A stretch of DNA of 64,000 nucleotides, taken from a virus. The first letter of the stretch is position 1. Each line of letters opens with the position of its first letter. Position numbers and translations under genes: made by a program. The notes under the pieces are model-generated. The model searched no databases. It was not told the origin of the DNA and saw only the letters and a list, made by a program, of their open reading frames with translations. The stretch spans positions 1 to 64,000 of the IMG/VR virus record IMGVR_UViG_3300013127_000002; one strand, written 5' to 3'. Shown piece by piece: positions 10,539 through 32,468 of the stretch.

Positions 10539-10540
10539 AC

Positions 10541-10765: not shown

Positions 10766-10776
10766 GGAGATCCCAA

Positions 10777-11154
10777 ATGGACCGATTTGTTGATCTGAAA
10801 AACGGAATCATCCGTGACACGAAGACTGGCCTGGAGTGGCAGGCCGAGCCACTCCAGCCTGCCCCTTGGCAAGAACAGATGGACGCGGCTGCGCGCCTGG
10901 ACCTCGGCGACCACACCGACTGGCGGTTGCCTACTGTTGAGGAGCTGGTTGCGTTGATCGACTACTCGAAGAGCAATCCGGCTTCTGAGTTCCCAAGGAT
11001 GCCGTCCGACTGGTTCTGGTCGTCGTCAGCGCGTGCCGCGTCCGCGTCCTACGCGTGGGGCGTGGCCTTCAGCTACGGCGGCGTGTACGACGACGGCAAG
11101 ACGCTCGGCAACTACGCCCGCTGTGTTCGCGGTGCCGCCCTCAGGGGCGAGTAG
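10777..11154 (+). CDS. DUF1566 / Lcl C-terminal (CLec-fold) domain protein
   Basis: RF.D..NG.I.D..TGL.WQ, DWRLPT.EEL, WSSS, AW.V.F..G, RCVR motifs. Confidence 0.88.
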   Translation: MDRFVDLKNGIIRDTKTGLEWQAEPLQPAPWQEQMDAAARLDLGDHTDWRLPTVEELVALIDYSKSNPASEFPRMPSDWFWSSSARAASASYAWGVAFSYGGVYDDGKTLGNYARCVRGAALRGE

Positions 11155-16569: not shown

Positions 16570-16741
16570 GCTTGCCAAGTCCCACGACCCTCTTCCGAAG
16601 AACAAGCTGTACCCGCTGAAGAAACTGCACAGGAATCTGGAAGCGTATCAGGAGCTCCTCATCGAGCTCATCACAACCGTGAGAGCGATCAAGGTCGCGA
16701 TCGCGAAGAAGATCAAAACGATGGAACGTTATGGCTACTAG
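16541..16741 (+). CDS. Hypothetical helical protein
   Basis: Packed ORF. Confidence 0.5.
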   Translation: MPEWLTKADELAKSHDPLPKNKLYPLKKLHRNLEAYQELLIELITTVRAIKVAIAKKIKTMERYGY

Positions 16742-17480
16742 CCTGAAGACGGCCGCCGAGCAGGCCCGGGCGCTGAAGGAGCGCTCGGGTCTGACCGTGA
16801 TGGAAACCGTCTACGTAGAAATCCGCGCAGCGGAAGGTGGCGACGACGCGAAGCTCCTCGTTCGGGAGATGGCGACGATCTACGCCACGCTCGCAAAGAA
16901 ACACGGTCTCGAAGGAGACATCATTGATGACAGACCTGGGCAGATGGTGCTGGAGTTCTACGGCACCAACGCTCAGGTCTTATTTAGCCGTGAGTCCGGG
17001 GGTCACCGGTGGCAGCGTATCCCCCCTACGGAGAAGCGCGGCCGTGTCCACACATCTACCGTCACCGTTGCTGTAATGTCCCCGCCGCCGGAGCTGCCGA
17101 CGCTCAACCTGGCACACATCCATGAAGAACTCTACCGCAAGGCTGCGGGCAATGGCGGTCAGAACAACAACAAGGTGGCGACGGCTTGCCGCCTTACGCA
17201 CATACCGAGCGGTCTTCGCGTAGAGTGCTGCTCGGAGCGCTCACAGAAAACGAACCGTGACCGGGCGATGAATCTGCTCATCTCCAAGCTGTATACGCTG
17301 CACCAATCCAAGATAGACAATGAGAGAGCCGGCGACCGCAAGGCGCAAGTAGGTAGCGGCATGCGGGGCGACAAAATACGCACGTACAGGGTACAAGATG
17401 ATAGAGCGACCGATCATCGAACAAACAAGAAGACCTCGCTGGAGAAAGTCATGCGAGGAGGATTGGAGGCGTTGTTCTAA
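16731..17480 (+). CDS. Class-I peptide chain release factor, RF1-type, lacking N-terminal domain 1
   Basis: EIRAAEGG.DA, E.G.HR.QRIPPTE.RGRVHTST (PxT), GGQ, SQ..NR..A, KIRTY, DHR. Confidence 0.9.
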   Translation: MATSLKTAAEQARALKERSGLTVMETVYVEIRAAEGGDDAKLLVREMATIYATLAKKHGLEGDIIDDRPGQMVLEFYGTNAQVLFSRESGGHRWQRIPPTEKRGRVHTSTVTVAVMSPPPELPTLNLAHIHEELYRKAAGNGGQNNNKVATACRLTHIPSGLRVECCSERSQKTNRDRAMNLLISKLYTLHQSKIDNERAGDRKAQVGSGMRGDKIRTYRVQDDRATDHRTNKKTSLEKVMRGGLEALF

Positions 17481-18838: not shown

Positions 18839-19018
18839 ATGGCGGACCAGGAGCTCAATCCCCTTCAGCAGGCAAAGCAGAAGCTTGCTGAGAACATGAC
18901 GATGAAAAACGTTCTGGCTTCTTTGCGGGGAGTTATCGCGAAGAATGCCCCTGACACTCTTCCTCGATTTGACAACTACAAGCAGAGCCTGCGGGATCGC
19001 GGTATACAGGTGGACTGA
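18839..19018 (+). CDS. Hypothetical protein (59 aa)
   Basis: AAGGAGG RBS; MADQELNPLQQAKQKL... Confidence 0.65.
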   Translation: MADQELNPLQQAKQKLAENMTMKNVLASLRGVIAKNAPDTLPRFDNYKQSLRDRGIQVD

Positions 19019-19052
19019 GCAGGCCGCGGGTACCGGAAAGGAGCGAGGCGCC

Positions 19053-19526
19053 GTGCCAAAAGACCACAGCAGTGTTATTCCTGGAGCACCTCCCGTTGAA
19101 CTTGCAAAGAATGGCATCAAGGTCACGATCCGGTGGAAGTTCATCGCTGCTATAGTCAGTACCGCTGTCGGGGCCTTGGGTGTAGCGGGCGTCACCGCAG
19201 TTGTGGGGGTCAACTTTGCTTCTGCTACAGAGCTGTCCGAGTTCAAGTCCGACCAGGACATGCAGCACTCGCGTATCAACAAGACTCTCGAAGACCAGGA
19301 TACGCACGCCAAAGCCCAAGACACGCGAATAGAAGAGATCAGCAAGACTGTGTCCTCGGTGCAGACGATCCAGCAGCGGGACGTGGCTCGCAATGAAGCC
19401 CGGCGCCTTACCGAGAAGATCCCCAAACGCGAAGAAAGAGAAGAGACCTACGACCGTCTCTACGAGCTCAACCTCAAGAGGTTACAGCGCGGAGATGACC
19501 CGTGCGGTTCTGTCAGCTGTGACTAG
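19053..19526 (+). CDS. TM + coiled-coil membrane protein (possible lysis accessory)
   Basis: One TM helix, then coiled coil and C-terminal Cys pair. Confidence 0.55.
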   Translation: MPKDHSSVIPGAPPVELAKNGIKVTIRWKFIAAIVSTAVGALGVAGVTAVVGVNFASATELSEFKSDQDMQHSRINKTLEDQDTHAKAQDTRIEEISKTVSSVQTIQQRDVARNEARRLTEKIPKREEREETYDRLYELNLKRLQRGDDPCGSVSCD

Positions 19527-19558: not shown

Positions 19559-20566
19559 ATGATGACGAAAACCCAGCAAATCATCGCCGGGCTGATCAAG
19601 CATGCCGAGAAGACGGCGATGCACGGTTACCCGGACTACCAGATGACCGAACCGCAGCAGCCGCCCCTCCCACAGATGTCCATCGACATGTACGGCAACG
19701 CCGGGTACTTCGCAGGCAATCCTGACCCTGATCCGATGGAGGAGGCGGTTCCTGTTCCTCCTTCCACGGACGCCCCGGCGCGTGGCCTTCTCAGCGGCTT
19801 CCCCGGCCGCTTCGTTGCCGGCGGCGCTATGGCGGGCAGTTTTGCCGGTAAGTCCCTTGTCGAGGATTCACTGAAGCGCGAAGGCCGCATGATCAACTTC
19901 CTCCAGGGGAAGGGCGGGCCCGGCTCTCCGGTGGTTCAGGATATTCTCTTGAAGGGTTTGGAGAAGGGGAAGATCGCGCCGGACCAGCTCTCCGAAGCGC
20001 GTGCGATGCTGACCGACCCGAACCGCTTGAAGAACGAGTACTTCAAGTCACCAGGAGCGTGGGAGCAAGCGCTCAAGAAATCTCGCAAAGCGTACTGGCA
20101 GTCCATGGGCAAAGGCCCAGGACTCGGCATTCTCGGCGGCGCGGCGTTGGGTCTGGGAGCAGGGGTGTTGTACAACAAGTTCTTCAACAAGGAGTCCGCG
20201 GACCGTGGGCCGGGCCTGCTCAGCAAGTTTTCCGAGTCGGCACGTACGCTGTACCCGACAGTCTACGAGCTGCAACGTCAAGGTGTTCAACCTGGACGCG
20301 GCTATCCTCTCAGTACCAGAGCTTTCAAGGCACCACCGCCCAAGCCGGAGTTTGTGGAGACCGCGTGGCGCGGCTACACGCCCAAGCCCTCTCCGTATGC
20401 CGCTACGGCGTTGCACGAAGTTCCGATGATGTCGTCGCATCCGTTGTCGAGAGCTGCGGCGGTGACGCAAGATGTGACGCGCGCTGCCAGGATACCCGCG
20501 CTCCAGGAGGTTACGCGCGTAGGCAAGGGAATACTCGGAGTGACTAGCCGGGGCCGTATTCGATGA
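19559..20566 (+). CDS. Leader-tagged glycine-zipper protein (variant leader; internal KTA/KES sites)
   Basis: MMTKTQQIIAGLIKHAEKTA; GLGILGGAALGLGAG. Confidence 0.7.
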   Translation: MMTKTQQIIAGLIKHAEKTAMHGYPDYQMTEPQQPPLPQMSIDMYGNAGYFAGNPDPDPMEEAVPVPPSTDAPARGLLSGFPGRFVAGGAMAGSFAGKSLVEDSLKREGRMINFLQGKGGPGSPVVQDILLKGLEKGKIAPDQLSEARAMLTDPNRLKNEYFKSPGAWEQALKKSRKAYWQSMGKGPGLGILGGAALGLGAGVLYNKFFNKESADRGPGLLSKFSESARTLYPTVYELQRQGVQPGRGYPLSTRAFKAPPPKPEFVETAWRGYTPKPSPYAATALHEVPMMSSHPLSRAAAVTQDVTRAARIPALQEVTRVGKGILGVTSRGRIR

Positions 20567-20760
20567 AGATCATCGACACAGAGATTGGTTCGGTAGTCAG
20601 TCTTTACGTTGTAAAGTGCGATTGCGGGTACGTGTTCAAGTCCCGGACAGACCGCTGGAAGATGACATGCCCTGGTTGTCAGAAGTCCGCGAGAACTCGG
20701 GATCTTGATGACCAGGATTACGGGTTGCGTGACACGGACGATTTCGAGGACCCAACGTGA
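20563..20760 (+). CDS. Zinc-ribbon protein
   Basis: CDCG...CPGC. Confidence 0.6.
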   Translation: MKIIDTEIGSVVSLYVVKCDCGYVFKSRTDRWKMTCPGCQKSARTRDLDDQDYGLRDTDDFEDPT

Positions 20761-21200
20761 TAAAGACTTCATCCCAGATTGCCGACGAAGTGTTGACCAA
20801 GCTGGCTGTGAACTTCCTGCGTCAGGCAGTGAAGGGTCAGAAGTCCACGCAGCGGGCCATCCAGGCACCAGCGAAACTGCGTGAGCCCAAATCCGTTATC
20901 GCAGCGCCTAAGCCGAAGGCGCCGAAGACGCAGTCTCCCGCACCCCCGAAGCTCCCGGCACCTGAAAAGAAGACACTGAAGCCGGCGAAGGTCGAGGGTG
21001 TGGCGGTCCCGAAAGCGGTGGTAGAGCCGGTGAAGGCACCGGAGCCGAAGCTGACGCAGCCGGGAAAGACGCTGACTCCACCTAAGGCTCCGCAGACGGC
21101 GACGAAAGCGCAGGTACCGCCCGGCACCAAGAAGACGACGAGTCCGTCTGAACAGCAACAGGCGGGTGCGGGGTACTTCAATACCCGTCCAGGGTCGTAA
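20757..21200 (+). CDS. Leader-tagged Lys/Pro/Ala-rich protein (histone H1-like composition)
   Basis: MIKTSSQIADEVLTKLA leader. Confidence 0.7.
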   Translation: MIKTSSQIADEVLTKLAVNFLRQAVKGQKSTQRAIQAPAKLREPKSVIAAPKPKAPKTQSPAPPKLPAPEKKTLKPAKVEGVAVPKAVVEPVKAPEPKLTQPGKTLTPPKAPQTATKAQVPPGTKKTTSPSEQQQAGAGYFNTRPGS

Positions 21201-21210
21201 GAGGTATTCG

Positions 21211-21405
21211 ATGAAGTACATTCTCGCTCTACTGACCACCGCAATTCTAATGACCAGCGGGTGCACGCCGGCCGCTCTCAAGTACGCCCAAGGACGCAAC
21301 CCCGGGTGCCAGGTCACAACGTTACAGCGCACTGGTGCCTCGACGGCTGTGCTGATACAATGTCCTGGACAAGACCCAAGGACGGAAACGTTCACGGAGA
21401 GATAA
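21211..21405 (+). CDS. Small lipoprotein
   Basis: Signal peptide with lipobox-like LMTSGC; GAGG RBS. Confidence 0.6.
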   Translation: MKYILALLTTAILMTSGCTPAALKYAQGRNPGCQVTTLQRTGASTAVLIQCPGQDPRTETFTER

Positions 21406-21421
21406 GGACAGGAGGTGCGTT

Positions 21422-21793
21422 ATGCTGAAAACAGCCAACCAAATAGGTAGCGAAGTCCTGACCAAGCTCGCAGACCTGAGTGACTCTCAGCGGTTTTCGC
21501 GAAACGTGGTAGGTACCTTGGGCGTTCTTCCGTACGTGGGGGGACTCGCCGCCCCGATTTATGCCGGCGCTACTGCACCAAAGGGTGAGGGTTGGAGCCG
21601 TGCTGGTGGCGTTCTTGGTTGGGAGATGCTTGGTAGCGTTCCTGGTTATGCGGCGTTGCTGGCGGGTCGGGGTATGGGGAACGCAGGTCTCCAATTCGGC
21701 GGATTGGCCGCGGGTCTTCTGGGACAAGGACTCGGTGCGGGATACGGGATGCATCGTGCTATAGCGGCTGAAAACGAAGCGCGAGGGCGGTGA
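21422..21793 (+). CDS. Leader-tagged glycine-zipper membrane protein
   Basis: MLKTANQIGSEVLTKLA; several GxxxG helices. Confidence 0.75.
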   Translation: MLKTANQIGSEVLTKLADLSDSQRFSRNVVGTLGVLPYVGGLAAPIYAGATAPKGEGWSRAGGVLGWEMLGSVPGYAALLAGRGMGNAGLQFGGLAAGLLGQGLGAGYGMHRAIAAENEARGR

Positions 21794-21831
21794 TGATCAA
21801 GACAGCATCCGAAACGTTTACGGAGATGTAG
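21793..21831 (+). pseudogene. Leader-only remnant MIKTASETFTEM*
   Basis: ATGATCAAGACAGCATCC matches the leader DNA; cargo absent. Confidence 0.55.
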
Positions 21832-21835
21832 GAAC

Positions 21836-22546
21836 ATGCAGAAGACGGCATCCGACATTGGGAACGAAGTTCTGATGAAGCTCGCGCTCTCGCCGGAATA
21901 CATCCAGCGGGCGTTGTCGGGACGTACCCTACGGCAGATGGTGTACGGCAAGACGACGCCCCACAACCTCGAAGGGTTCGGGAACATGATCGCCGATGTC
22001 GCTGCGGCGTCTCCTCGTGCCGCTCGTGCGACGGGAGCTCCGGCATCTCGGGCCGAGATACTTTCCCAGCTGGCGGAAATGCCCGCGGCGGATAGAGCAG
22101 AAGCCAACCGGTTCTTCCGGGAGGTGGCGAACACTGTTGAAAGTGTCCCCATGTCGGCGCGTGTACAGCTAGCCCCAGAGGTAGCAGCGGCCATGCCGGG
22201 GGCGGGAGCGGCGGGTATCAATCTGGGCGTGCCTTCGTTGGCGCAGCGACTTCGCATCAACCGGTTGTCGCGTCGTGCGGGTGTTGGCGCGCCGTTTGGT
22301 ACACATGAGCATTCCGTGTGGGCAGGCGATGTGCGTCCGCGCGCAACAGCTTCTCCTGAGGTCGCTGCTCCGGCAGCCGCTGCTTCCCCAGCAGCCGCCG
22401 CTCCAGTGTCCGTAGGTGGCGGCGGAGGCGGAGGCGGAGGCGGCGGAGGCGGTGGCAGCTCGATGGCTCCATGGCTGATCGGTGGCTTGGGTGCGGCCGG
22501 ACTCGGTGGAGCAGGGTATGGCCTTTACCGAGCGACGAGAGACTGA
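21836..22546 (+). CDS. Leader-tagged protein with poly-Gly linker and C-terminal Gly-zipper TM
   Basis: MQKTASDIGNEVLMKLA; Gly14 at 22415-22456. Confidence 0.75.
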   Translation: MQKTASDIGNEVLMKLALSPEYIQRALSGRTLRQMVYGKTTPHNLEGFGNMIADVAAASPRAARATGAPASRAEILSQLAEMPAADRAEANRFFREVANTVESVPMSARVQLAPEVAAAMPGAGAAGINLGVPSLAQRLRINRLSRRAGVGAPFGTHEHSVWAGDVRPRATASPEVAAPAAAASPAAAAPVSVGGGGGGGGGGGGGGSSMAPWLIGGLGAAGLGGAGYGLYRATRD

Positions 22547-22547
22547 A

Positions 22548-22820
22548 GTGCAAAAAACAGCATCCCAGATCGGCAACGAGGTTCTCAACAAGGTGGCTTC
22601 AGTCGAGGAAGCTGCGGAGAACACGTTGAGAGAAGTGCGGGACATGCACCAGCGAAGCGCGTTAAAGTACCAGGCGGCCATGCGCGAGAACCAGGCGGCG
22701 GCGGCGTCACACATTGCGCGCAACAAACTGTTGAAAGGTTTGGGAATCGCAGGTGCTCTCGGTTTGGGCGGCTATGCTCTTTACCAGCTTGGAAAAGATG
22801 ATGATCAAGACCGCGTCTGA
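22548..22820 (+). CDS. Leader-tagged Gly-zipper protein
   Basis: GTG start MQKTASQIGNEVLNKVA; GLGIAGALGLGG. Confidence 0.75.
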   Translation: MQKTASQIGNEVLNKVASVEEAAENTLREVRDMHQRSALKYQAAMRENQAAAASHIARNKLLKGLGIAGALGLGGYALYQLGKDDDQDRV

Positions 22821-23046
22821 TATCGGTAACGAGGTTCTGGGGAAGCTGGGCTACCTGTCTCCGCAGGATATTCTCATGCAGCATAATCCCGGTATGGGGA
22901 TGCCGCAGACGCCGATGCCCATGATGCAGCAGCCGGGAATGGGTTTTGGCGGCGGGTACTCTCCGTACGACCAGATGATGATGCAGCAACAAGCGGGCGG
23001 GATGCCCGGTGGAGGACCGTACGGTGGATATCCACCCGGGTACTGA
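22798..23046 (+). CDS. Leader-tagged M/Q/P/G/Y low-complexity peptide
   Basis: MMIKTASDIGNEVLGKLG. Confidence 0.7.
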   Translation: MMIKTASDIGNEVLGKLGYLSPQDILMQHNPGMGMPQTPMPMMQQPGMGFGGGYSPYDQMMMQQQAGGMPGGGPYGGYPPGY

Positions 23047-23049
23047 GAC

Positions 23050-23526
23050 ATGCAGAAGACAGCATCCCAGATCGGGAACGAGATCCTCTTCAAGCTGGCT
23101 CAAGGTTACGAGCAGATGGACCCGAGCTACTACGAGGAGCCTGCTCCCCGCAAGCGGCGTTGGCCGGCGGCGGTCGGTGGTGCTGCTGTCGGCGGACTTG
23201 CGGCGCATCACCTCCTGCCGAGCCAGATGGTGAAGGACTACCGGAGTGCGGCGGGCAGCATCGAGGGCAAGGCACAGGCGTCTCTCGAAGCACACAAGCC
23301 GCATTACGACGCGCTGACAGACACGTACAAGAAGGAGATCCCCGGCCACGGCGTAACGGTGAGAGATGTCACCGCCGAGGGCAGGCCCTTCACGAAGAAG
23401 ATGCCGGCGCACATGGCGCAGAAGTATCTCAAGAGCCGGGCGTTTGCGGAGGCGATGCCCCGCACGCTTCTCGGTGCTGGACTCGGGCTCGGCGCGGGGA
23501 TTCTCGCGTCGAACGCCATGGACTAA
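23050..23526 (+). CDS. Leader-tagged Gly-zipper protein
   Basis: MQKTASQIGNEILFKLA; two Gly-rich hydrophobic segments. Confidence 0.75.
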   Translation: MQKTASQIGNEILFKLAQGYEQMDPSYYEEPAPRKRRWPAAVGGAAVGGLAAHHLLPSQMVKDYRSAAGSIEGKAQASLEAHKPHYDALTDTYKKEIPGHGVTVRDVTAEGRPFTKKMPAHMAQKYLKSRAFAEAMPRTLLGAGLGLGAGILASNAMD

Positions 23527-23536
23527 GGAGACGGGG

Positions 23537-23962
23537 ATGTTCAGCAGCTACCAACAGGGTTACATTTTCGGGATGCAGAAGCTGGGCATGTCGCACGGCT
23601 ATGAGGACATCCCGAGGACGCCGACCCCGGAAGAGTACGCACGTCGTGTCGCGGATGCGGAGTGGCGGGCGAACAACGCGGCGGCCAGCAAGGCTGTGTA
23701 CGAGGATGTTCTCAAGAAGAAGAACTTCACTATCGATGAGCTCAACCGGGGCTTTGCTGATCAGAAGCAGCACTACCTAGACCAGACCGCCAAGCTCCGA
23801 GGTGAGCACGGCGCGATGTCGCAGGAGCTGGGTAACATGGGACGTCCGACCCGGTGGTTCGGCAAGCTGTCGCCAATGAAGAAGGGACTTGTCGGCGGAG
23901 CCGCAGGGCTCGGGACGCTCGGACTCGGACTTGGTCTGGGTCACGCGCTGTCGGGAGATTGA
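23537..23962 (+). CDS. Type-2 leader Gly-zipper protein
   Basis: MFSSYQQGYIFGMQKLG; AAGGAG RBS. Confidence 0.75.
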   Translation: MFSSYQQGYIFGMQKLGMSHGYEDIPRTPTPEEYARRVADAEWRANNAAASKAVYEDVLKKKNFTIDELNRGFADQKQHYLDQTAKLRGEHGAMSQELGNMGRPTRWFGKLSPMKKGLVGGAAGLGTLGLGLGLGHALSGD

Positions 23963-23965
23963 TGA

Positions 23966-24262
23966 GTGACACCGTACGCGAAAGGGTGGTGTTCCGCGCT
24001 GGTAAAGCTGGGGCTGTCGAGCTCCGCCGTAGCGGCGACGTCTGGCACCACTTCGGGGGCAAAGCCCGGGGCGACGACGAACACGACAACGGCGCCGAAG
24101 CAGTCGAAGCCGTGGCAGTGGTCGGCCGCGAACAACATCGAACCGAAGTTGCACGAGAACGCGTGGTCGCACGCGCAGAAGGATCTGGACACAGGTGAGT
24201 CCCGCGTGATGGCGAAGTTCGATGCGTCACAGAGACAGCCGCAACTCCCGGTGGGAGGGTGA
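23966..24262 (+). CDS. Type-2 leader protein
   Basis: MTPYAKGWCSALVKLG. Confidence 0.65.
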   Translation: MTPYAKGWCSALVKLGLSSSAVAATSGTTSGAKPGATTNTTTAPKQSKPWQWSAANNIEPKLHENAWSHAQKDLDTGESRVMAKFDASQRQPQLPVGG

Positions 24263-24263
24263 A

Positions 24264-24605
24264 ATGACGAAGACAGCGGAACAGATCTCCCTGGAGATTC
24301 TCCAAAAACTCGCGCAGTCGGGCGAAGAGAAGAGCCCAGTTCTGCGGGGCCTCGCGGGAGCGGGAATCGGCGGCGCGGCTGGCGGGTTGACGGGGTTCGG
24401 GTCGGCGGTGCATCATGGGGTGAACAACCCAGAGCTCCGCAAGGTCATCGAACAGCAACATGTTCACGGCGCGAAGACTCTGAGGCCCGGACAGGTTGCG
24501 AAGATGAATCGCTTCGGAGAGATGGGACGAGCAAGAACAGGCAAGGGCGCCCTCATCGGCGCAGGACTCGGCGCAGGACTCGGAGTGCTGTCCGCGCTTT
24601 CATAG
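24264..24605 (+). CDS. Leader-tagged Gly-zipper protein
   Basis: MTKTAEQISLEILQKLA; GALIGAGLGAGLG. Confidence 0.75.
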   Translation: MTKTAEQISLEILQKLAQSGEEKSPVLRGLAGAGIGGAAGGLTGFGSAVHHGVNNPELRKVIEQQHVHGAKTLRPGQVAKMNRFGEMGRARTGKGALIGAGLGAGLGVLSALS

Positions 24606-24614
24606 AGGTGAAAG

Positions 24615-24920
24615 ATGAACGCATTTCAACAGGGTTACTTGTACGGACTGTGGAAGTTGGGCTTCTCCGAGGAGTTTGCTGCGGCGCAGCCGCCGATGTC
24701 CCACGAGGAGTTCCTCGCGGCCAAGGGCGCAACGACACCCCCGAAGGGGGTTTCGGCAGCAGCCAAGAGTGAAGCGGGCAAGGCGGCGAAGGGCGGCAAG
24801 GGTCTCGCGCACCACGGACGTCAACTTGGCGCGACGATCGCGAAGCACCCCGGCAAGGCGGCACTCATCGGTGGTGCCGGCCTGCTCGGTGCCGGCCTGC
24901 TCGGGCGTGCAACAGCGTAG
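24615..24920 (+). CDS. Type-2 leader Gly-zipper protein
   Basis: MNAFQQGYLYGLWKLG; ALIGGAGLLGAGLLG. Confidence 0.75.
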   Translation: MNAFQQGYLYGLWKLGFSEEFAAAQPPMSHEEFLAAKGATTPPKGVSAAAKSEAGKAAKGGKGLAHHGRQLGATIAKHPGKAALIGGAGLLGAGLLGRATA

Positions 24921-24930
24921 GAGAGGTGTC

Positions 24931-25275
24931 ATGCTGAAGACTGCATCGCAGATCTCCGACGAGGTGCTGTGGAAGCTCGCCGCGGCGTGGCAGCGTCGTG
25001 CTGCTCAAGTGGGAGTACCCCAGCAACAGATCAATGCAGCCACGCAGACTCTCAAGGCACAGCGGCCTGACGCGCTTGCGGTGAAGCAGCGTCAGCTGGC
25101 TGCCCGGGGTCCGGCGGTGAAGCCCGGTGGCGGGCTCATGGGCGGCATCAAGAACCTGTGGAGCAAGCCGCTCGGCAAGGCGGGGCTGATCGGCGGTGCT
25201 GCGGCTCTCGGCTACGGCGCCTACAAAGCCTTCGGCGGAGGGCAGAAGCCGCAGCAGCAGTACGGAGGCTACTGA
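24931..25275 (+). CDS. Leader-tagged Gly-zipper protein
   Basis: MLKTASQISDEVLWKLA; GLIGGAAALGYG. Confidence 0.75.
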   Translation: MLKTASQISDEVLWKLAAAWQRRAAQVGVPQQQINAATQTLKAQRPDALAVKQRQLAARGPAVKPGGGLMGGIKNLWSKPLGKAGLIGGAAALGYGAYKAFGGGQKPQQQYGGY

Positions 25276-25730
25276 TGTACAAGCTCGCAGCGTGGGAACA
25301 GGGGTACATAGAGGCGCTCATCAAGCTGGGTATTGCCTACGGTCCTGGCGCGGCGGGGATCATGACGTCCGCGGACATGTACGTCCCCGAGCACAAGCCT
25401 CCGACGACATCTCTCGCCCAGCGGAAGTCTGAGATGGAAGCGTCTACCGGCGCAGCCAGGCAGAAGCGTGTCGCTGATCGGATTGCCATGGGTGAGAAGG
25501 CGACCAGCCCCGGCGGCAAGGCACTCGCAGCTCCTCTCAAGTTCCACGAGCACCCGATTACGCGTCAGGTGCAGATCAGCCCGGAGTACAGGGAGTACGC
25601 GAACCAGATGCGCGCAAAGGCCCCGGGCGTAGGGGCCGGCCCGGCCGCGGCGTCCAAGGCGTCACCTCTCAAGCGCATTGCCGGGGGGCTCACGAGTCTC
25701 GTTTCCAGGGGCAAGGTTCGCGCAGCCTAG
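25275..25730 (+). CDS. Type-2 leader basic protein
   Basis: MYKLAAWEQGYIEALIKLG. Confidence 0.7.
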   Translation: MYKLAAWEQGYIEALIKLGIAYGPGAAGIMTSADMYVPEHKPPTTSLAQRKSEMEASTGAARQKRVADRIAMGEKATSPGGKALAAPLKFHEHPITRQVQISPEYREYANQMRAKAPGVGAGPAAASKASPLKRIAGGLTSLVSRGKVRAA

Positions 25731-25784
25731 TTCTTCCCCTCTTCTTGCCGTTGACGTATACTCCTCCTTAGTAGGAGGAAATAC

Positions 25785-26333
25785 ATGCCATATCCATTCC
25801 CGTCCCCTGCATCCTTGCCGCCGTTGGGCGCGAGTCTCGATCTCGCTGTGGCGTTGGAGTTCGACGTGGGAACCCCCGTGTCCGACAAGGCGGCCAAGCT
25901 GGGACAGATGCTGTCGATTCCGTACGACCAGGTCATCATGATGACGCACGACATGGAGGCGACCTGGCGGGATAATGACATCTCTGTTCCGATCCGAGAT
26001 GATTTGATCACGCTCTACACGCCGCTGGCGGACCCTGAAACCTCCTACGTTGTGGGGATCATCATCACCTGCGAGATGGGAGAGGCGGTTCTCTATTTCT
26101 GCACGGACCTCGCCGAGACCGGGGCGTTCGACCCCCCGGACTACCACTACATGATCCCGACGCCGATCACTTCAGGCGGGTGTTTCATCTACGTGAACAA
26201 CCACGACTACGAGCGCGCAAACAACTGGCAGGGGCAGGTGGATGTGCCGATCTACATCGGGGAGATTCTCGCCGGGGCGTTTCTGCCGACGCGGTTGACG
26301 TCGTACGTTTTCCTGCACACGAAGGGAGTATGA
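25785..26333 (+). CDS. Hypothetical acidic beta-rich protein (putative virion)
   Basis: AGGAGG RBS; TATACT -10-like motif upstream. Confidence 0.65.
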   Translation: MPYPFPSPASLPPLGASLDLAVALEFDVGTPVSDKAAKLGQMLSIPYDQVIMMTHDMEATWRDNDISVPIRDDLITLYTPLADPETSYVVGIIITCEMGEAVLYFCTDLAETGAFDPPDYHYMIPTPITSGGCFIYVNNHDYERANNWQGQVDVPIYIGEILAGAFLPTRLTSYVFLHTKGV

Positions 26334-26336
26334 CTG

Positions 26337-26939
26337 ATGCACACCCGAGCACCCATTCTCGGACAGTTCATGGAATTGACCCGAGGAAAAGTCACGATGT
26401 CTGCGCAGGCTACATTCCCGGCGGGCGGACTGGCAACGGCAGATCAGAAGCCGGTCGTCACGTGGGCGCTTGAGCACTACCCGTTCTCGATGCGCATTGG
26501 CGGATACGTGGATATCGGGGCGACTGACCCCGCCAGGGATCTGGATGACTTCACCAAGATCGCTCCGCTTTACATGGATGAGGCGATAAAGGATGGCGGG
26601 GAACCGCAGCTCGCGGGGATCAATCCCGTGAAGGCGATCCTCATTCGTTGCTTGGTCGGGTCGGGGTTGATATACGTCAACGTTTTTCCGGGCGATCCTC
26701 CGGCTCCGCCTCCTCCGATTTCGGAGAGCGTGAAGCAGGCGGTGTTCCCGCTGCACGCGGGTGTCGGACTGTTCTACTACACGTTCCCGCGGAGAGACCC
26801 GTGGCGTTGTGTATTTTCGTCGGACAACTCCGGCCCCCCTCTGGTTACAGAGAAGATCACGATTCCGTCGTGTATCATCGACCTGGGGCTGCGGACGTTC
26901 GAAGACAGCAACCGCTTCCAGATGGAACTTTTTAGGTAA
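26337..26939 (+). CDS. Hypothetical beta-rich protein (putative virion)
   Basis: Packed ORF, similar composition to the upstream gene. Confidence 0.65.
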   Translation: MHTRAPILGQFMELTRGKVTMSAQATFPAGGLATADQKPVVTWALEHYPFSMRIGGYVDIGATDPARDLDDFTKIAPLYMDEAIKDGGEPQLAGINPVKAILIRCLVGSGLIYVNVFPGDPPAPPPPISESVKQAVFPLHAGVGLFYYTFPRRDPWRCVFSSDNSGPPLVTEKITIPSCIIDLGLRTFEDSNRFQMELFR

Positions 26940-26948
26940 CAAGGTGGT

Positions 26949-28688
26949 GTGATGCCTTTCAAGAGCGAAGCGCAGCGCCGTAAGTTTCACGTCATGGCCG
27001 AGCGGGGAGAGATCTCCGAGAAGAAGGTCAGTGAGTGGGAGCACGAGACTCCCAAGAAGGTGAAGGAAAACTTGCCTTACCATGTAAAGAAGTCCTCTCA
27101 GGAGATCGCCAACGAGGTTCTGTCGAAGCTGGGTGCCAACCTGCCCAAAAACATCGGCGTTTTCACTGCGGGATCGGGTGGGCCTAAGGCTTTGGAGCGT
27201 GTCATGAAAGCAGAGCGCTCCATCCCACGACCTCCCCCGGCGAAGCCGGATGTCCCGATCGAGTGGCGGAAGTCGATGGCGCAACGCCCCGCGCCGCAGA
27301 ACGAGATGTTGAAGTTTTTCTCTCTCAAGGAAGGACAGATCCCGGCGTCCCCGAACTCACCCGTGGGGTCTTCAGGCATGCCTACCGAGACCCCGACGGC
27401 TGCCAGCGTGGGCATGGGGAAAGGCAACCAGGCTCCGGCGTTCGGCCAGCCCGGCAAGATGGGCAGCGCTCTCGGTCTTCTCGGCAAGTTCGCGTCGGCA
27501 GATCCGTCAGCTGTGGAGGCCGCGGTTCTCAAGGCTTCTGGACCCGGTGGTGGTTCGAAGCTCTGGCAGAGTCTCACAGGTCTCTCGGATGATGTTCTAC
27601 TGGCCGGGATGAACATGAAGGAGAAACAGCGCCGGGCCCTGGAGCGTGGCTCTGAGAAGAACGCGGCTGAGACTCTGGCGTCTTCGATACTGATGCTCAC
27701 GAAGATGAGCGAGGTTCCGAAGAAGCAGACCGAGGACAAGCTCAAGGGCGGACTTGCCGACAACAAGCCGGCCAGTGACTTCGACCCGGACCAGATGGAG
27801 ATGGGCAAGAAGGTCGAGCTCGAACACACGGATGACCCGCAGCTCGCAGAGGAGATCGCGAAGGACCACCTCGACGAGATCAAGGACTACTACACCCGTC
27901 TGAACAAGATGGAGGACGAGGCACCGAAGAGCGCGGCAGCGGCGTGTGACACCCCCGGCGAGAAGATCCGGAGCAAGGGCAAGGGTCGTGGGGAGGCTCA
28001 CGGCAAGGGAGAAGGCCCGCTGGGTCGAGTCCGCCAGATGTTGGAAGACGAAGAGAAGAAGGCGGCGCTGACACGTGCCGAGCGAGGCATCTACGAAAAC
28101 GAAGACGCGAAACGCCGGCATTTCAGCGCCATGATGGCCAGCGAATCTCCCATGAAGACCGCAGAGATGCTTCGAGAGTCGCCGCTCTATTCGTCAACCC
28201 CGCTCCCACAGTCTTCGCCTTCGGATATTCTCCAGCTTCTCAAGGCACAGGCGTTGATCGAGCAGCAACAGCAGCAGATGAAGATGGGACAGATCAACGA
28301 CCCGGGTGACGGGCCGCACCTCCCGTATCAGATGGAAAATGAGAATTCCGGCGACCAGATGCCGATGGGCGACATCCAGGCAAAGATGCAGCAGCAAGCG
28401 ATGCTGGAGCGTCTCTACGCCGAGCAGATGCGGGCCAAGCAGGTCGAGGACACGTACAAGGGCAAGGTCCGCAGGGGTGAGCTCATCGGCGGGATTGGCG
28501 GCTTGCTGGGTGGCGGACTCCTGGGTCACGTTGTCAGCGCCGGCACGGGCGTCCACATGCCTGCGACGTTCCTTAGTGCCGGAGCTGGTGGTTTACTCGG
28601 TAAACACATCGGCCAGGGCATCGGACAACAGCAGGGTTTGGAGTATCTCCACCAGTACAGCGGGGTGCCGTGGGGGATCCAAAGATGA
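26949..28688 (+). CDS. Modular polyprotein-like protein: MPFKSxAQRR module, internal leader, DUF5661-like module, Gly zipper
   Basis: Internal KKSSQEIANEVLSKLG; GLAD...G.KVE.EHT.D...A.EIA.DHL.E...YYT.L..ME; many KxA/KxG junctions. Confidence 0.75.
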   Translation: MMPFKSEAQRRKFHVMAERGEISEKKVSEWEHETPKKVKENLPYHVKKSSQEIANEVLSKLGANLPKNIGVFTAGSGGPKALERVMKAERSIPRPPPAKPDVPIEWRKSMAQRPAPQNEMLKFFSLKEGQIPASPNSPVGSSGMPTETPTAASVGMGKGNQAPAFGQPGKMGSALGLLGKFASADPSAVEAAVLKASGPGGGSKLWQSLTGLSDDVLLAGMNMKEKQRRALERGSEKNAAETLASSILMLTKMSEVPKKQTEDKLKGGLADNKPASDFDPDQMEMGKKVELEHTDDPQLAEEIAKDHLDEIKDYYTRLNKMEDEAPKSAAAACDTPGEKIRSKGKGRGEAHGKGEGPLGRVRQMLEDEEKKAALTRAERGIYENEDAKRRHFSAMMASESPMKTAEMLRESPLYSSTPLPQSSPSDILQLLKAQALIEQQQQQMKMGQINDPGDGPHLPYQMENENSGDQMPMGDIQAKMQQQAMLERLYAEQMRAKQVEDTYKGKVRRGELIGGIGGLLGGGLLGHVVSAGTGVHMPATFLSAGAGGLLGKHIGQGIGQQQGLEYLHQYSGVPWGIQR

Positions 28689-29635
28689 AGCACGTTGTCA
28701 CCCAGATCGTTCAGGCAACACAACAGCTGAACGAGAAACGATCGTCCATCTCCCAGCTGTTAGGGAGTGCGGAGCGTTCTCCTGTGTGGCATGACGTGGC
28801 GGAAATCGGCGGGTTGGGCCTTCTTGCCGCACCCTCTGTTGCTGACCTGGCGGGTGATCCCTGGAAAGAGAAGAACAAGGCACTGGCTGAGATCGCAGGA
28901 CTCGGCATTCTTGCTGCTCCATCGGCGCACAACCTCATCGGAAAGATCAGACAGCCGAAGGTTGCCGCGGATGAGCGCATCGGAGGGCCATACCTCCGGT
29001 ACGACAACGAAACGTCGAACAAGGCGATCGGAATGCCCCCCGAGGAGCCGCAGTCCCCGGCCTTCTCAAGACCCGAACCTCCGTACAACGGCGGCTACAC
29101 GATGAACGATGTCAGCCTGCCGCGCTACCAGTTCGAAGTGTCCGAGCAGCCGACGTTGGGGACGTCGAAGGCGCTGCCTTCCGCGAAAGAGTCTGTTGCG
29201 TCTGTTATCGACAAGATTGCCCAGGGCGTAGACGACATGAACCAGGAGATGGCGCCGTACTACTCCCAGCAGCCGCAGTACATAGTGCTCCCGCCGCGGG
29301 AGAAGCCGTCCGGGTCTTTCGTGCCTCCCTTCGTGGGTGCGGCTGTCGGCGCACCTCTCGGGTGGCATGTCGGAGAACAGATGGGCCTGTCCAAGTACCC
29401 CGGGTACAAGACGCTGGATAAGGCCGTGGACTGGCTGGGCAATCAGAGCTCGAAGCTCCCGAACTCGCCGCTGGTTCGTGATGCTGCTGACGTAGCCGGC
29501 GGAACCTTGTGGGGCAAGTACCAAGGCTTCAAGATGCTCGGGCCGATTGGTATGTACCGCTTGGGCGGTGCGGCGCTGGGTCTCGGTGGTGGGCTTCTGG
29601 CAGGTGCGCTGGTCAACAAGGCGATGGAAGACTAA
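28685..29635 (+). CDS. Modular Gly-zipper protein
   Basis: Duplicated AEI.GLG.LAAPS; internal KVAA and KIAQG; C-terminal zipper. Confidence 0.7.
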   Translation: MKHVVTQIVQATQQLNEKRSSISQLLGSAERSPVWHDVAEIGGLGLLAAPSVADLAGDPWKEKNKALAEIAGLGILAAPSAHNLIGKIRQPKVAADERIGGPYLRYDNETSNKAIGMPPEEPQSPAFSRPEPPYNGGYTMNDVSLPRYQFEVSEQPTLGTSKALPSAKESVASVIDKIAQGVDDMNQEMAPYYSQQPQYIVLPPREKPSGSFVPPFVGAAVGAPLGWHVGEQMGLSKYPGYKTLDKAVDWLGNQSSKLPNSPLVRDAADVAGGTLWGKYQGFKMLGPIGMYRLGGAALGLGGGLLAGALVNKAMED

Positions 29636-29637
29636 CA

Positions 29638-30507
29638 ATGAACGAGTACTTTTCCCGCGGTGTCTACGCGGCGCTCACCAAATTGGGGATGAGTCCCGAG
29701 GTGCTCGCCGAGCATCATGCTCGGATCATTAACGCCGCGAAGCGACAAGGTCACAAAGTTCCGACGTTCGCCGAGCTTAACGAGATCCTGCCCCCCGGCT
29801 GGGAGAAGAAGTACAAGGGCTCCTGGCAGGAAGCGTATCTCGGATCCGACTGGCTGAAGCAGCGCAACTCCGAAGTGCTGGAAGCCAAAGAGAGAGCACG
29901 TGAGAACGCGGCGTACCAGGCGGCACGGGCACGTCAGTCTGCGTCTTCTTCAAGGCGGCGGCAGTCGACAGGTGCGTCTTCTTATGACCCGTGGGAGGAG
30001 TACGCACGAAAGGAGTACGCACGAGCTCGTGAGGCAGGGCGGTGGGAGGAGTACGCACGAGAGGAGTACGCACGAGCTCGTGAGGCAGGGCGGCAGAAAG
30101 CAAAAGAGTCTCCTTACTCCAAGGCTTGGGAGGACTACAAAGCTCGAAGAGCGGAAGAGCAGGCCGAGTACGCGTCGCAGAAGGCAGAGAATGACCGCAA
30201 GTGGGAGGAGTCGAAGCGCCGCTGGGCCGAACAAGACGCCGAGTCGGCCCGTCGCTACGCTGCGCGCCAGGCCAAGTACGATGCCGCGCAGAACGCAGCA
30301 GCCGCACGACGTCGTGCGGCGCAGAGTGAGTTCCACAGTAGCTTCGAGGGTGGAGGAGGTTCGTCTTCCCGCCCGCGCTCTGGTGGTACTAGCGGCTTGG
30401 GTCTCGCCATCGGGTTAGGGGTGCCACTCACCGTAGCCCTGGCGTATGGACTGTCCGGAAGTTCGGACAGCAGCAAGAAGAAGGCTAAGAAGCGGGCAGC
30501 TCGCTGA
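29638..30507 (+). CDS. Type-2 leader coiled-coil protein with C-terminal TM
   Basis: MNEYFSRGVYAALTKLG; tandem repeat; GLGLAIGLG. Confidence 0.7.
   Translation: MNEYFSRGVYAALTKLGMSPEVLAEHHARIINAAKRQGHKVPTFAELNEILPPGWEKKYKGSWQEAYLGSDWLKQRNSEVLEAKERARENAAYQAARARQSASSSRRRQSTGASSYDPWEEYARKEYARAREAGRWEEYAREEYARAREAGRQKAKESPYSKAWEDYKARRAEEQAEYASQKAENDRKWEESKRRWAEQDAESARRYAARQAKYDAAQNAAAARRRAAQSEFHSSFEGGGGSSSRPRSGGTSGLGLAIGLGVPLTVALAYGLSGSSDSSKKKAKKRAAR
29991..30092 (+). repeat. 51-bp tandem duplication (2 copies, 1 mismatch), in frame
   Basis: Encodes WEEYAR(K/E)EYARAREAGR twice. Confidence 0.9.
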
Positions 30508-31051
30508 TAGCCTTCTTGAACCACTCCCTCACTTTTGCTTCAGGCCAAGCGTACAGGTAATCGGGCCCGCTCAACACCTTCACGTAGTGTTCGATGTCCG
30601 GGGACCATCCGTACTTCTTTTCTATTTTGTATTCGACGAGAAATGCCTCTCTCTCGAACCTGAAGCGGAACCATGAACGCCACGCAGGAAGTGGTACAAA
30701 TAGATAGAGGAACAGGAACGGCCACATCCCGATCGACGCCTCTCCCAGACCGAGCGCCGCGCACTGTTTCACGTGGACTGTTTCATGTTTCAGGGTGATG
30801 TAGTCACTGAACGTGACGTGCTTCAAGTCGGTGGACTCGGGGTACGCGATGAGGGGGCCGAGGGTTGTGGCCCGTCGCATGAAGTCGCTTTTCTTGAAGC
30901 CCCGCACGACCCAGAAGATCCAGTCTATTGCTTTCCAGAACCAGCGGTGACGTGCCTTTGTCGTTACAAAACCGCCGTACCTTTCGTCGAGTTCGTCACA
31001 GTCGAGGTTGAACCAGGTCTGGATCACCTCGGGATTTTGAGGAAGAGTCAT
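30485..31051 (-). CDS. Putative zinc metallopeptidase (HExxH...E), membrane-associated
   Basis: HETVH..Q followed by a hydrophobic segment and FEREAF; GGAGG RBS. Confidence 0.7.
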   Translation of the reverse strand: MTLPQNPEVIQTWFNLDCDELDERYGGFVTTKARHRWFWKAIDWIFWVVRGFKKSDFMRRATTLGPLIAYPESTDLKHVTFSDYITLKHETVHVKQCAALGLGEASIGMWPFLFLYLFVPLPAWRSWFRFRFEREAFLVEYKIEKKYGWSPDIEHYVKVLSGPDYLYAWPEAKVREWFKKAISELPAS

Positions 31052-31184: not shown

Positions 31185-32468
31185 ATGAACAACTTCCATT
31201 TCAGAAGATTCCGCGATCAGTGCCAGCGGTACATCGACGAGTACACGGACATCTGGCAGGCGGGATTGCCAGAGTACAGTGGGGACTTCTCCACAGCAGC
31301 GAGAGACTACTTCCACCAGATGGCAGAGAGGTTTCATGATCAGGAGAGGTCGTGGGGATCGGTGGAAAAGAATATCAGGAGCAACCTGATCATCTACCCG
31401 GTGTTCGAGAGCATCATCCGGCGTTGTCCTGTGCCGCACAGCTACTCGGCGCTGGTGTCGATGCCGGAGTTACATTGGCTCACGCAGTTCTTGAGTGTTA
31501 CGGTCGCGCCTGCCGAGTCAGTGGACGCGTTCATGGAGAGTCTCCTGACTACGCTCATGATGTGGTTCATGAACCACAGCATGCGGGGATGCGGGGACAA
31601 GGCTTACGTCGTAAAGCCGGATCTCCGGTGGGCGCTGGAGAACACGGAGCTCAAGGGGTTTCCGTCTGACGACCTGCGGCTTCCGTTTCCGGTTATCTAC
31701 ATCGACGCGGAGGGGTTCATCGATGTCTATAACCCGCTTACCGGCATGCACAAGTCACTCGGTGTTTACGTCATGGAAGACAACACCAGGACGCCGAGAG
31801 TCTGGCGTCTCCTCATTGTCGGCAAGGGCAAGTCCGACAGTGCGCTGGGACCGGAGTACGACGACGCGCTCTACCACTACCAGATTCTGTTTCCCGAAGG
31901 GGGCACGGTTGACGACGCCCTCCAGTACTCCTTTGACTTCATGGTGGGCAAGGAGACTCAGACAATCGAGGTCGAGTTCGACGGGCGCAAGTTGAAGGTA
32001 CAGAGCAGCTTCGGACGGGAGGAGAACAGGGAGAGTTTCATCATGATGTGGCAGAACCTTGTGCATCTGTTCAAGTATGTGATGAACGTGATCGTGTATA
32101 CGACGACGCAGGATGCAGATGTCAGACTCAGGGCCACGTCTCCGGCGTATCTGGCGCTCAGGGAGCGTGCGATGAAGACGTCTGGTGAAAAACGGAGGCG
32201 CCTCTTCGACCGACTGAAGGGTATCGAGCCAAACAACGCGTTTGTTCTCGGCGGGAACATCACCATCGACCGGCAGCCCAAAGAAGCTTCAGATTTGGTA
32301 GAAGAACATGAACGCCGGAAGCAACGTGTGCGCTCGTTGGTGAGCGGTCACTATCACACGTACAGGATCGGCACCGGCCGGACGGAGTCGATCAGGAAGT
32401 GGCTGTCCCCGTACTGGCGGGGACCTGAGCACGCGCCTCTTACGACCAAGACGCGCGTCGTGAAGTGA
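31185..32468 (+). CDS. Hypothetical phage protein (C-terminal V.GH...G.GR....KW..PYW.G motif)
   Basis: 427 aa ORF; motif typical of a phage hypothetical family. Confidence 0.7.
   Translation: MNNFHFRRFRDQCQRYIDEYTDIWQAGLPEYSGDFSTAARDYFHQMAERFHDQERSWGSVEKNIRSNLIIYPVFESIIRRCPVPHSYSALVSMPELHWLTQFLSVTVAPAESVDAFMESLLTTLMMWFMNHSMRGCGDKAYVVKPDLRWALENTELKGFPSDDLRLPFPVIYIDAEGFIDVYNPLTGMHKSLGVYVMEDNTRTPRVWRLLIVGKGKSDSALGPEYDDALYHYQILFPEGGTVDDALQYSFDFMVGKETQTIEVEFDGRKLKVQSSFGREENRESFIMMWQNLVHLFKYVMNVIVYTTTQDADVRLRATSPAYLALRERAMKTSGEKRRRLFDRLKGIEPNNAFVLGGNITIDRQPKEASDLVEEHERRKQRVRSLVSGHYHTYRIGTGRTESIRKWLSPYWRGPEHAPLTTKTRVVK

Follow-up and report, generated by a model that had tools for sequence, protein, structure and literature searches.

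Two short peptides shared by unrelated proteins of an uncultured freshwater-sediment phage: probable docking tags that may target cargo to the assembling head

Introduction

What is a short peptide for when it is kept nearly constant in front of proteins that have nothing else in common? This question is raised by a gene array at positions 19,559 to 30,507 of a 64,000-nucleotide stretch of viral DNA (the window, abbreviated WIN). The window consists of the first 64 kb of the linear, 87,842-bp IMG/VR record IMGVR_UViG_3300013127_000002, whose completeness was estimated by CheckV at 49% and whose source is a large, uncultured freshwater-sediment phage. An original prediction, made from the sequence alone, described about 16 array proteins that start with one of two short leaders (type 1 and type 2). 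It interpreted these leaders as a modular address label directing membrane-active or disordered proteins into the virion, where they would be cleaved after K-L-A/G before being ejected into the host envelope.

The analysis reported here confirmed the observation and partly supported its interpretation. Both leaders are best read as short, modular, position-independent docking peptides. By analogy with bacteriophage T4, and with a probability of roughly 0.4, they may target the assembling head, so that tagged proteins would be packaged and delivered to the next host. Below, tag-bearing loci that were fetched from other sequence collections are denoted by L-numbers, and metagenomic proteins or cluster representatives by P-numbers.

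Results

Two Leader Peptides Conserved at the Protein Level

Strict regular expressions were applied to the six reading frames of the whole 87,842-bp record. The type-1 pattern (KTASQIxxEVLxKLA) yielded nine matches, eight of which were N-terminal (K codons at positions 20763, 21428, 21842, 22554, 22807, 23056, 24270, and 24937) and one internal (27090). Five matches were found for the type-2 pattern (Y..GY....KLG), all of them N-terminal (23549, 23975, 24624, 25293, and 29650). All matches came from the + strand and mapped to 20.7–29.7 kb, with none elsewhere in the record. Profile hidden Markov models (HMMs) of both leaders were scored against 1,883 stop-to-stop segments of the record. Nine type-1 matches (E 4e-11 to 4e-7) were separated by at least six orders of magnitude from the next best segment (E 5.3), and five type-2 matches (E 2e-7 to 4e-5) by four orders of magnitude (next best E 0.51). 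The window copies had been included in both training sets, and the informative result of these searches is therefore the absence of further copies. Strict patterns and HMMs thus located the leaders essentially where they had been predicted, including the internal copy in the gene at 26949. The number of tagged proteins between 20.7 and 30.5 kb was 14 (13 N-terminal, one internal) rather than about 16: a proposed variant leader at 19559 was detected by neither HMM, and the protein encoded at 28670-29635 carried no leader.

Behind the tags, the proteins were unrelated, with no pair at E ≤ 0.01 among 16 bodies; the complete divergence noted in the original prediction was thereby borne out. The same held for the glycine zippers ascribed to most of the array proteins, which were present in the last 50 residues of 11 out of 16, as compared to none of the 71 other genes of the record.

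The tandem, same-strand arrangement of the array genes would be consistent with a recent gene duplication or with a DNA-level cassette junction, in which case the similarity of the leaders would have no function of its own. This explanation was refuted, and the probability left to it is negligible. At identical leader residues, the same codon was used with a frequency of 0.46, close to the 0.44 expected from codon usage, and DNA identity was 0.66 in the leaders and 0.27–0.28 (background) in their flanks. Since codon identity was at expectation and the flanks were at background, recent duplication and cassette junctions were ruled out; the unrelated bodies and the presence of the same peptide on 130 clusters elsewhere also argue against them. 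These results indicated that the leaders are conserved at the protein level only, under selection on the peptide. Such selection fits the proposed modular address label, as does the occurrence of the leader on at least 130 unrelated clusters elsewhere (see below).

Type 1 is a 15-residue tag whose hydrophobicity is periodic in the manner of an amphipathic helix (mean hydrophobic moment 0.46, z = +2.0 relative to its own shuffles, 4.8% of which reach this value). The two tag types have only a final h-x-K-[LV]-[GA] in common. The array itself is tightly packed, with intergenic gaps of −23 to +54 nt. Promoter-like sites between 17.5 and 33.5 kb occurred at chance level (3, with 3.4 expected), and terminator-like sites were weak. 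A megablast search of the array against cultured phages returned nothing. When ten array proteins were compared with PHROGs and Pfam, no PHROG family and, in Pfam, only DUF5661 was found.

Occurrence of the Tags in Other Phages

A degenerate type-1 DNA pattern, which fixed 11 of the 15 tag positions including the Glu, retrieved 22 JGI metagenome contigs, and a true leader was present in 20 of these. GC contents of the tag-bearing contigs ranged from 0.37 to 0.63. A start codon directly preceded the tag in 30 of 33 distinct type-1 copies; the consensus of the leaders on these contigs was M-x-KTASQIADEVLxKVA. Positions left free by the pattern were still conserved (Ser at 4, Ala/Gly/Ser at 7, Asp/Asn at 8, and the preceding Met).

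With a profile built from the 33 N-termini and covering type 1 only, 1.84 billion protein cluster representatives were searched. At E ≤ 1e-3, it matched 130 representatives with a median length of 120 residues, and 107 of these matches started at residues 1–6. One of the 130, the repetitive protein P0077, was rejected as a spurious match. As implied by the original prediction, the motif was therefore enriched beyond this locus (20 metagenome contigs with a true leader, 130 clusters).

For at least 120 of the 130 representatives, no Pfam family was found. Families that were identified comprised DUF5662 (three representatives), Gly-zipper_Omp (two), and, once each, Rick_17kDa_Anti, DUF5661 (the window's own protein), MazG, GNAT, and PsbN. 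Glycine zippers were seen in 32 of the 130 families, leaving about three quarters without one. The Pfam glycine-zipper families PF13488 and PF05433 matched three of the 130 representatives and none of six scanned leader proteins of the window. The DUF5662 domains of P0034, P0046, and P0108 are rich in conserved His and Asp; they are preceded by an N-terminal type-1 tag or followed by additional copies.

A full type-1 leader was also found at the start of a 466-aa SNF2-type helicase encoded by L007 (179-1579, − strand). The top PHROG matches of this helicase were to helicase parts of proteins of 1,881–4,647 residues, including, with a weak E-value, a DarB-like antirestriction family. Another SNF2-type helicase of about 466 aa, encoded by L002 (7173-8579, − strand), has a degenerate remnant of the tag at its N-terminus. 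Tags were not confined to N-termini: P0014, P0046, and P0079 each have three copies, and a single one of all these copies is situated at the very C-terminus of its chain. Because of such internal, tandem, and C-terminal copies, the tag is unlike a classical N-terminal propeptide.

Type 2 (consensus M-T-P-Y-x-x-G-Y-x-x-h-h-x-K-L-G/A) was present in six of the 20 loci that had been fetched by the type-1 pattern alone, always on a start codon, and in four of the nine loci of at least 4 kb. The two types thus travel together, and type 2 belongs to the same system as type 1.

Tagged proteins were strongly basic, with a median pI of 9.96 (89% above 9) that became 10.15 upon removal of the tag. For the other genes of this phage, the median pI was 6.34 and 24–26% of values exceeded 9 (Mann-Whitney p = 3e-15). 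Ala, Gly, Pro, and Lys were enriched in the tagged proteins.

Matches outside these metagenomic sequences were scarce. In 185,579 prokaryotic species, represented by one genome each, the type-1 pattern matched three times and never at an N-terminus; one of these matches presumably is a RadC-type helix-hairpin-helix. A tblastn search with a consensus-like leader protein against 50,697 cultured-phage records returned nothing. Besides the record of the window, IMG/VR contained one true match, L002, in a 64.9-kb record estimated to be 36% complete. A literature search yielded no paper containing the motif or DUF5661/DUF5662.

Proteins Encoded by the Array

All array genes are encoded on the + strand. 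The first tagged protein (20757-21200; type 1, 147 aa, GTG start) is rich in Lys, Pro, and Ala, has a pI of 10.4, and lacks a glycine zipper. It is followed by a 64-aa lipoprotein-like gene (21211-21405) with a signal peptide ending in LMTSGC, as read from its sequence; this gene is conserved in L025 and L013. Three type-1 proteins with a C-terminal glycine zipper are encoded next: a 123-aa protein with 21% Gly (21422-21793), a 236-aa protein in which an uninterrupted run of 14 Gly precedes the zipper (21836-22546), and a 90-aa protein with a GTG start (22548-22820). An acidic type-1 protein (22798-23046; 82 aa, pI 4.7) with a prion-like, low-complexity body rich in Gly, Pro, Met, Gln, and Tyr separates the latter from a 158-aa type-1 protein with a C-terminal zipper (23050-23526). 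Homologues of the 22548 and 23050 genes, neighbours in the array, are fused in frame in P0001. Two leader-like motifs per chain were found in six of the 12 metagenomic homologues of the 23050 protein; neither this protein nor an alignment, used as query, identified a related locus in viral or metagenome contigs.

The first type-2 proteins are a 141-aa protein with an uncharged, Gly/Leu-rich C-terminal segment (23537-23962) and a 98-aa protein with a GTG start that lacks a C-terminal zipper (23966-24262). These are followed by a 113-aa type-1 protein with two glycine-zipper segments (24264-24605), a 101-aa type-2 protein with a C-terminal zipper (24615-24920), a 114-aa type-1 protein with a C-terminal zipper and a homologue in L016 (24931-25275), and a 151-aa type-2 protein without zipper (25275-25730). 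Two leaderless acidic proteins without family match (25785-26939; 182 aa, pI 4.2, and 200 aa, pI 5.6) were considered as a general receptor of the tags and rejected, since the remaining leader loci do not contain them.

The largest tagged protein of the array (26949-28688, 579 aa) contains the internal type-1 leader (nt 27090-27134). From the N-terminus, it consists of a conserved 'MPFKSEAQRRKF' domain, the leader, DUF5661 (aa 281-324), a Q-rich region, and a C-terminal glycine zipper. Homologues were found in L016, L023, L013, and L009, the last by an N-terminal match; in both the window protein and its L009 homologue, the tag is placed after a conserved N-terminal domain of 45 residues. The DUF5661 segment matches a DUF2213 protein of Vibrio phage VPs20, whose gene is situated between the terminase gene and a DUF2184 gene, a head-module position.

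The last tagged protein (29638-30507; type 2, 289 aa) has a coiled-coil-like charged body and a C-terminal hydrophobic segment, and shares 31% identity with a type-2 protein of L013. The leaderless 321-aa protein encoded at 28670-29635 has a C-terminal zipper and is conserved in L023 and L016. Membership of the HMM-negative, 335-aa protein at the left end (19559-20566), which has an internal zipper, is doubtful.

A Candidate Metallopeptidase Next to the Array

A 188-aa protein with an HExxH...E signature is encoded at 30485-31051 on the − strand, convergent with the last array gene, whose 3' end it overlaps by 23 nt. The protein has a mid-chain hydrophobic stretch. Among its homologues, of which 19 were found in metagenomes, H89 and H93 are invariant, E90 is present in 18 of 20 sequences, and E133/R134, forty residues further on, are again invariant. 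This gluzincin-like pattern predicts a candidate metallopeptidase. No match was found in Pfam, PHROGs, or the PDB, the last by phmmer as well as by profile search. The Pfam family PF13699 (eCIS_core), which we take to be the former DUF4157, covered the HExxH stretch in two of five homologues at 13.7 and 17.3 bits, below its cut-off of 22; it matched neither the window's own protein nor any other part of the record. The gene adjoins leader genes in WIN, L016, L024, and L012, and was present in only two of the nine leader loci of at least 4 kb. The same longest contigs (173,820, 14,007, 45,741, and 168,727 bp) were reported for its homologues and for the leader proteins.

Gene Neighborhood and Source Phage

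On its left side, the array is flanked by a gene for a 249-aa protein with an RF-1 (peptide chain release factor/peptidyl-tRNA hydrolase) domain (16731-17480; phrog_19918, E 1.5e-46) and, just upstream, by a gene for a protein with a transmembrane segment, a coiled coil, and a Cys-rich end (18945-19526). Judged from the sequences, the latter and the lipoprotein-like gene at 21211-21405 resemble an i-spanin/o-spanin pair whose two genes have been separated, or else the lipoprotein may serve in superinfection exclusion. To the right, beyond the convergent 188-aa gene, lies a gene for a 427-aa protein (31185-32468) that was placed by the ESM Atlas with AcrVA2-like (PF26125) clusters (score 0.97, structural TM 0.56) and has a homologue with 57% identity in L016.

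Gene content around the tags varied between loci. Homologues of the 26949, 24931, 28670, 30485, and 31185 genes are kept in L016 in a different order, and in L023 two different leader genes are situated between the 26949 and 28670 homologues. The array is thus hyperplastic, gaining and losing genes. A census of recurrent non-leader neighbours revealed no universal partner. The DUF5661 protein recurred in WIN, L016, L023, and L013, with the N-terminal match in L009, and the small lipoprotein in WIN, L025, and L013. A family of about 180 aa is encoded directly upstream of leader genes in L013 (8498-8983, − strand), L018 (1979-2530, + strand), and L022. It may represent a permuted papain-like (YiiX-type) enzyme; a phmmer search of the PDB returned nothing for this family. 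In L011, two type-1 genes and one type-2 gene are located between genes for multisubunit RNA polymerase, namely one for a 1,459-aa protein in which beta-type (Rpb2) domains are joined to beta-prime-type (Rpb1 N-terminal) domains (2158-6537) and a separate Rpb1_5 gene (9036-10871). An IS605 OrfB/TnpB-type transposase with a Cas12f1-like TNB domain is inserted among leader genes in L017 (6136-7314), and also in L025.

Elsewhere, the record encodes a GpA-type large terminase (85681-87309), a baseplate-J-like protein (63593-65683), a tail-fibre-like DUF2793 protein (51777-54098), a class II ribonucleotide reductase, a helicase, a PurA/PurZ-like synthetase, and a DUF2201 vWA-metallopeptidase together with a MoxR-like ATPase. 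The top PHROG annotation of the adenylosuccinate-synthetase-like gene (5877-7160) was a PurZ-type enzyme. No usable ESM Atlas match was obtained for a 649-aa open reading frame at 13466-15415, and PDB phmmer returned nothing for the gene at 47902-48984. Comparison of the terminase pointed to Salmonella phage Arash (180.8 kb), with 28.7% identity over 98% of the query, and to Vibrio phages of about 187 kb as the nearest cultured relatives; among viral contigs, the terminase identified no relative.

Array DNA was detected in five freshwater-sediment metagenome runs (at least 97% of sampled words), four of which may be its source. Two anchialine runs contained only 0.06–0.07 of the sampled words, and the search of sequencing runs yielded no RNA run with the array.

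Discussion

A short module that remains constant while everything behind it varies is most simply explained by docking to one conserved, phage-made receptor. According to the mechanism favoured here, the many unrelated proteins that carry the tags would all bind this common receptor, which would be the core or scaffold of the assembling head; packaged together with the DNA, the tagged proteins would in turn reach the next host, in the way of T4 internal proteins with their capsid-targeting sequence (CTS). After ejection, the zipper-bearing cargo of this phage could insert into the host envelope, since most of it ends in a weakly hydrophobic glycine-zipper helix. The common receptor, the role of the prohead as receptor, and ejection of the cargo are inferences, and several features favour the assembling head. 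The anatomy of the system matches that of T4, with a short tag on diverse basic proteins and a variable locus. Tagged enzymes are of a kind that phages are known to inject, DUF5661 has an association with the head module, and basic, disordered proteins are suited to being co-packed with DNA. The link to the capsid is one of analogy, because head genes were found neither in the record nor in Arash.

Several observations weigh against a role in the head. In the record, about 49% complete, searches for capsid, portal, and prohead-protease families (PF05065, PF05136, PF03420, PF04586) were negative, and the complete genome of the nearest cultured relative, Arash, likewise yielded no capsid, portal, S77 protease, or S78 protease. 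PF03420 (Peptidase_S77) also lacked a match in the 36%-complete L002 record; absence from half a genome is weak evidence. Since none of the capsid, portal, or prohead-protease families was detected in the record, the head module is probably encoded by its missing half. The original prediction expected capsid or scaffold proteins to share the processing sites of the leaders. HMM searches recovered the 14 array copies clearly and none elsewhere in the 87.8-kb record, which has no head module. The array is surrounded by non-structural genes (RF-1 domain on the left, AcrVA2-like on the right); the ip genes of T4 also lie outside its head cluster. The lipoprotein and the protein with a transmembrane segment and coiled coil, as read from their sequences, would point to a role in the envelope inside the infected cell. 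Copies of the tag are also found inside chains, in tandem, and in one case at a C-terminus, the amphipathicity of type 2 was not significant (z = 0.8), and no cultured phage with the tag was found by tblastn of cultured phages or by profile search of Arash.

The conserved Glu of type 1 can be read either way. [A/G/S]-x-E, a site of the type recognised by the proteases of T4, phiKZ, and SPN3US, was present in 30 of 33 type-1 copies, although for one copy per locus the Glu had been fixed by the search pattern; this Glu sits in the middle of the helix rather than at the end of the tag, and type 2 has no such residue. Cleavage after K-L-A/G, as originally predicted, gained no support, as no residue is conserved after the tag and tags can be internal, in tandem, or C-terminal. 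If proteolytic removal occurs, [A/G/S]-x-E in type 1 is as good a candidate site as K-L-A/G, and the final G/A of the tags may simply be a helix cap.

A possible, if rather unlikely, alternative is that the tags attach their proteins to an assembly that forms in the infected cell and is not part of the virion. In this case, the array proteins would be tail-anchored in the inner membrane through their C-terminal glycine zipper, keep the N-terminal helix in the cytoplasm, and either bind a common hub, such as the DUF5661 protein, or form bundles in which type 1 pairs with type 2; they would act in envelope remodelling, superinfection exclusion, or lysis timing. Much of the evidence from the array is consistent with such an assembly: C-terminal zippers in 11 of 16 array proteins vs. 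none of 71 other genes, and in 32 of 130 tagged families elsewhere; the lipoprotein-like gene conserved in L025 and L013 and the membrane protein with a coiled coil encoded upstream (18945-19526); the non-structural neighbours; tags at internal positions; the co-occurrence of types 1 and 2; and the DUF5661 protein that recurs in WIN, L016, L023, L013, and L009. However, zippers are missing from about three quarters of the tagged families, soluble enzymes with a tag (helicase, MazG, GNAT, DUF5662) would be misfits in a membrane complex, and the extreme basicity of the disordered bodies better suits contact with nucleic acid.

That the tags are recognition sequences of a processing or modifying enzyme is improbable. 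Such a role would follow the logic of leaders of bacteriocins and ribosomally synthesized and post-translationally modified peptides (RiPPs), or a proposal made for DUF4157 in extracellular contractile injection systems (eCIS), with the HExxH protein as the peptidase. DUF4157 has been described as an HExxH domain associated with eCIS toxins, for which a function in their loading or maturation was proposed (PMC8213781). Proximity of the HExxH gene to leader genes in four loci, the shared longest contigs, and sub-threshold PF13699 matches in two of five homologues favour this idea. Against it, the gene is present in only two of nine leader loci of at least 4 kb, the window's own protein has no PF13699 match and its profile search against the PDB was empty, cargo of up to 466–579 aa is far larger than RiPP cores, and the putative cut site has no conserved residue. 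Still less credible, and very improbable in our judgement, is a degron or regulatory handle that times the lifetime of early proteins, for instance through a host AAA+ protease or chaperone. A short, conserved N-terminal motif on unrelated proteins in an early-looking neighbourhood would agree with it, but the same tag occurs in phages with GC contents of 0.37–0.63 and thus probably very different hosts, exists in internal and C-terminal copies and in two co-occurring types, and has no N-terminal match in 185,579 species genomes.

Targeting of the assembling head remains the favoured, tentative reading. Its fullest version is a two-tag address code, in which a type-1 amphipathic helix and a co-occurring type-2 peptide, at any position in the chain and stackable in tandem, would bring considerably more than a hundred protein families, whether basic, disordered, membrane-inserting, or enzymatic, into the heads of scattered uncultured phages, several of them of a ~175-kb class, without a recognisable T4-type protease; as a whole, this version is doubtful. 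If the tags are packaging labels, they would mark a large, almost wholly uncharacterised set of proteins delivered with phage DNA, including membrane-active peptides and candidate counter-defence enzymes. Injected proteins could then be predicted and listed in metagenomes from sequence alone, and a 15-residue, position-tolerant packaging handle, independent of T4, would be available for loading foreign proteins into particles. Should the tags instead dock to a membrane assembly or an enzyme, they would still constitute an undescribed, widespread system of short linear motifs on at least 130 families.

Comparison With Known Systems

The closest parallel is the CTS of T4, carried by IPI, IPII, IPIII, and Alt and removed by gp21. 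T4 internal proteins have been described as basic and diverse and as having in common only a CTS of 10–19 residues (PMC9026906, PMC3012670, PMC5694885, PMC10229621). The tags studied here resemble it as short N-terminal peptides on unrelated, basic, dispensable-looking proteins, and gene content of the T4 internal-protein locus varies between relatives as it does in L016 and L023. The letters of the T4 CTS (MKTYQEFIAE; PMC8442874) and those of type 1 (M-x-KTASQIADE) both run from K-T to E over nine residues, a resemblance for which homology is not claimed. The T4 analogy of the original prediction thus held for a short tag on unrelated basic cargo that includes enzymes (SNF2, MazG, GNAT, DUF5662), and gained no support for the protease, as no S77 enzyme was found in the 49%-complete record or in Arash. 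In contrast to T4, the terminase is GpA-like and Arash, the nearest cultured relative, is not T4-like. The tags also differ from the T4 CTS in that two types travel together, the tag has 15 residues with the Glu in the middle, internal, tandem, and C-terminal copies occur, and many cargo proteins have a C-terminal glycine zipper.

Giant phages offer a second parallel. In phiKZ, 201phi2-1, and SPN3US, diverged proteins keep a conserved N-terminus with a small-x-Glu motif (A-X-E in SPN3US, S-x-E in phiKZ), and the tag-bearing L011 encodes multisubunit RNA polymerase genes. Such polymerase genes are typical of phiKZ-like phages. Cleavage after Glu is common to the proteases of T4, phiKZ, and SPN3US, the motif of SPN3US being A-X-E (PMC10052503, PMC5694885). 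The proteins gp53 and gp54 of SPN3US have identical 15-residue N-termini, and most giant-phage propeptides measure 100–250 residues, whereas the present tag has 15 residues and is carried by more than 100 families. No homology was found between the tagged proteins and head or ejection proteins of giant phages or their protease.

With eCIS of the PVC/Afp type, the phage shares, from its genes alone, a contractile-tail particle, diverse clustered cargo genes, and an adjoining HExxH protein. Unlike eCIS, which are DNA-free tail-like particles, it is a phage with a large terminase (85681-87309). eCIS packaging signals comprise about 20–50 residues and have no motif in common with these tags. Of the eCIS analogy in the original prediction, only the sub-threshold PF13699 lead through homologues of the neighbouring HExxH protein stood, and the window protein itself had no match. 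Double-glycine leaders of bacteriocins and RiPPs end in G-G or G-A, whereas the tags end in K-[LV]-[AG] and not in G-G; the neighbour census revealed no C39 peptidase transporter or maturase among recurrent neighbours, although no search was aimed at C39. The N-terminal tags of huge phages, MNWYK... and MNRYDIALGKKP..., differ in sequence from both types.

Shared tags as such are of a kind known from T4 and, though less distinctly, from giant phages. New features are the tag sequences themselves, the occurrence of two types side by side, the tolerance of internal and tandem positions, the class of glycine-zipper cargo, and the presence on at least 130 clusters in phages without a recognisable T4-type protease.

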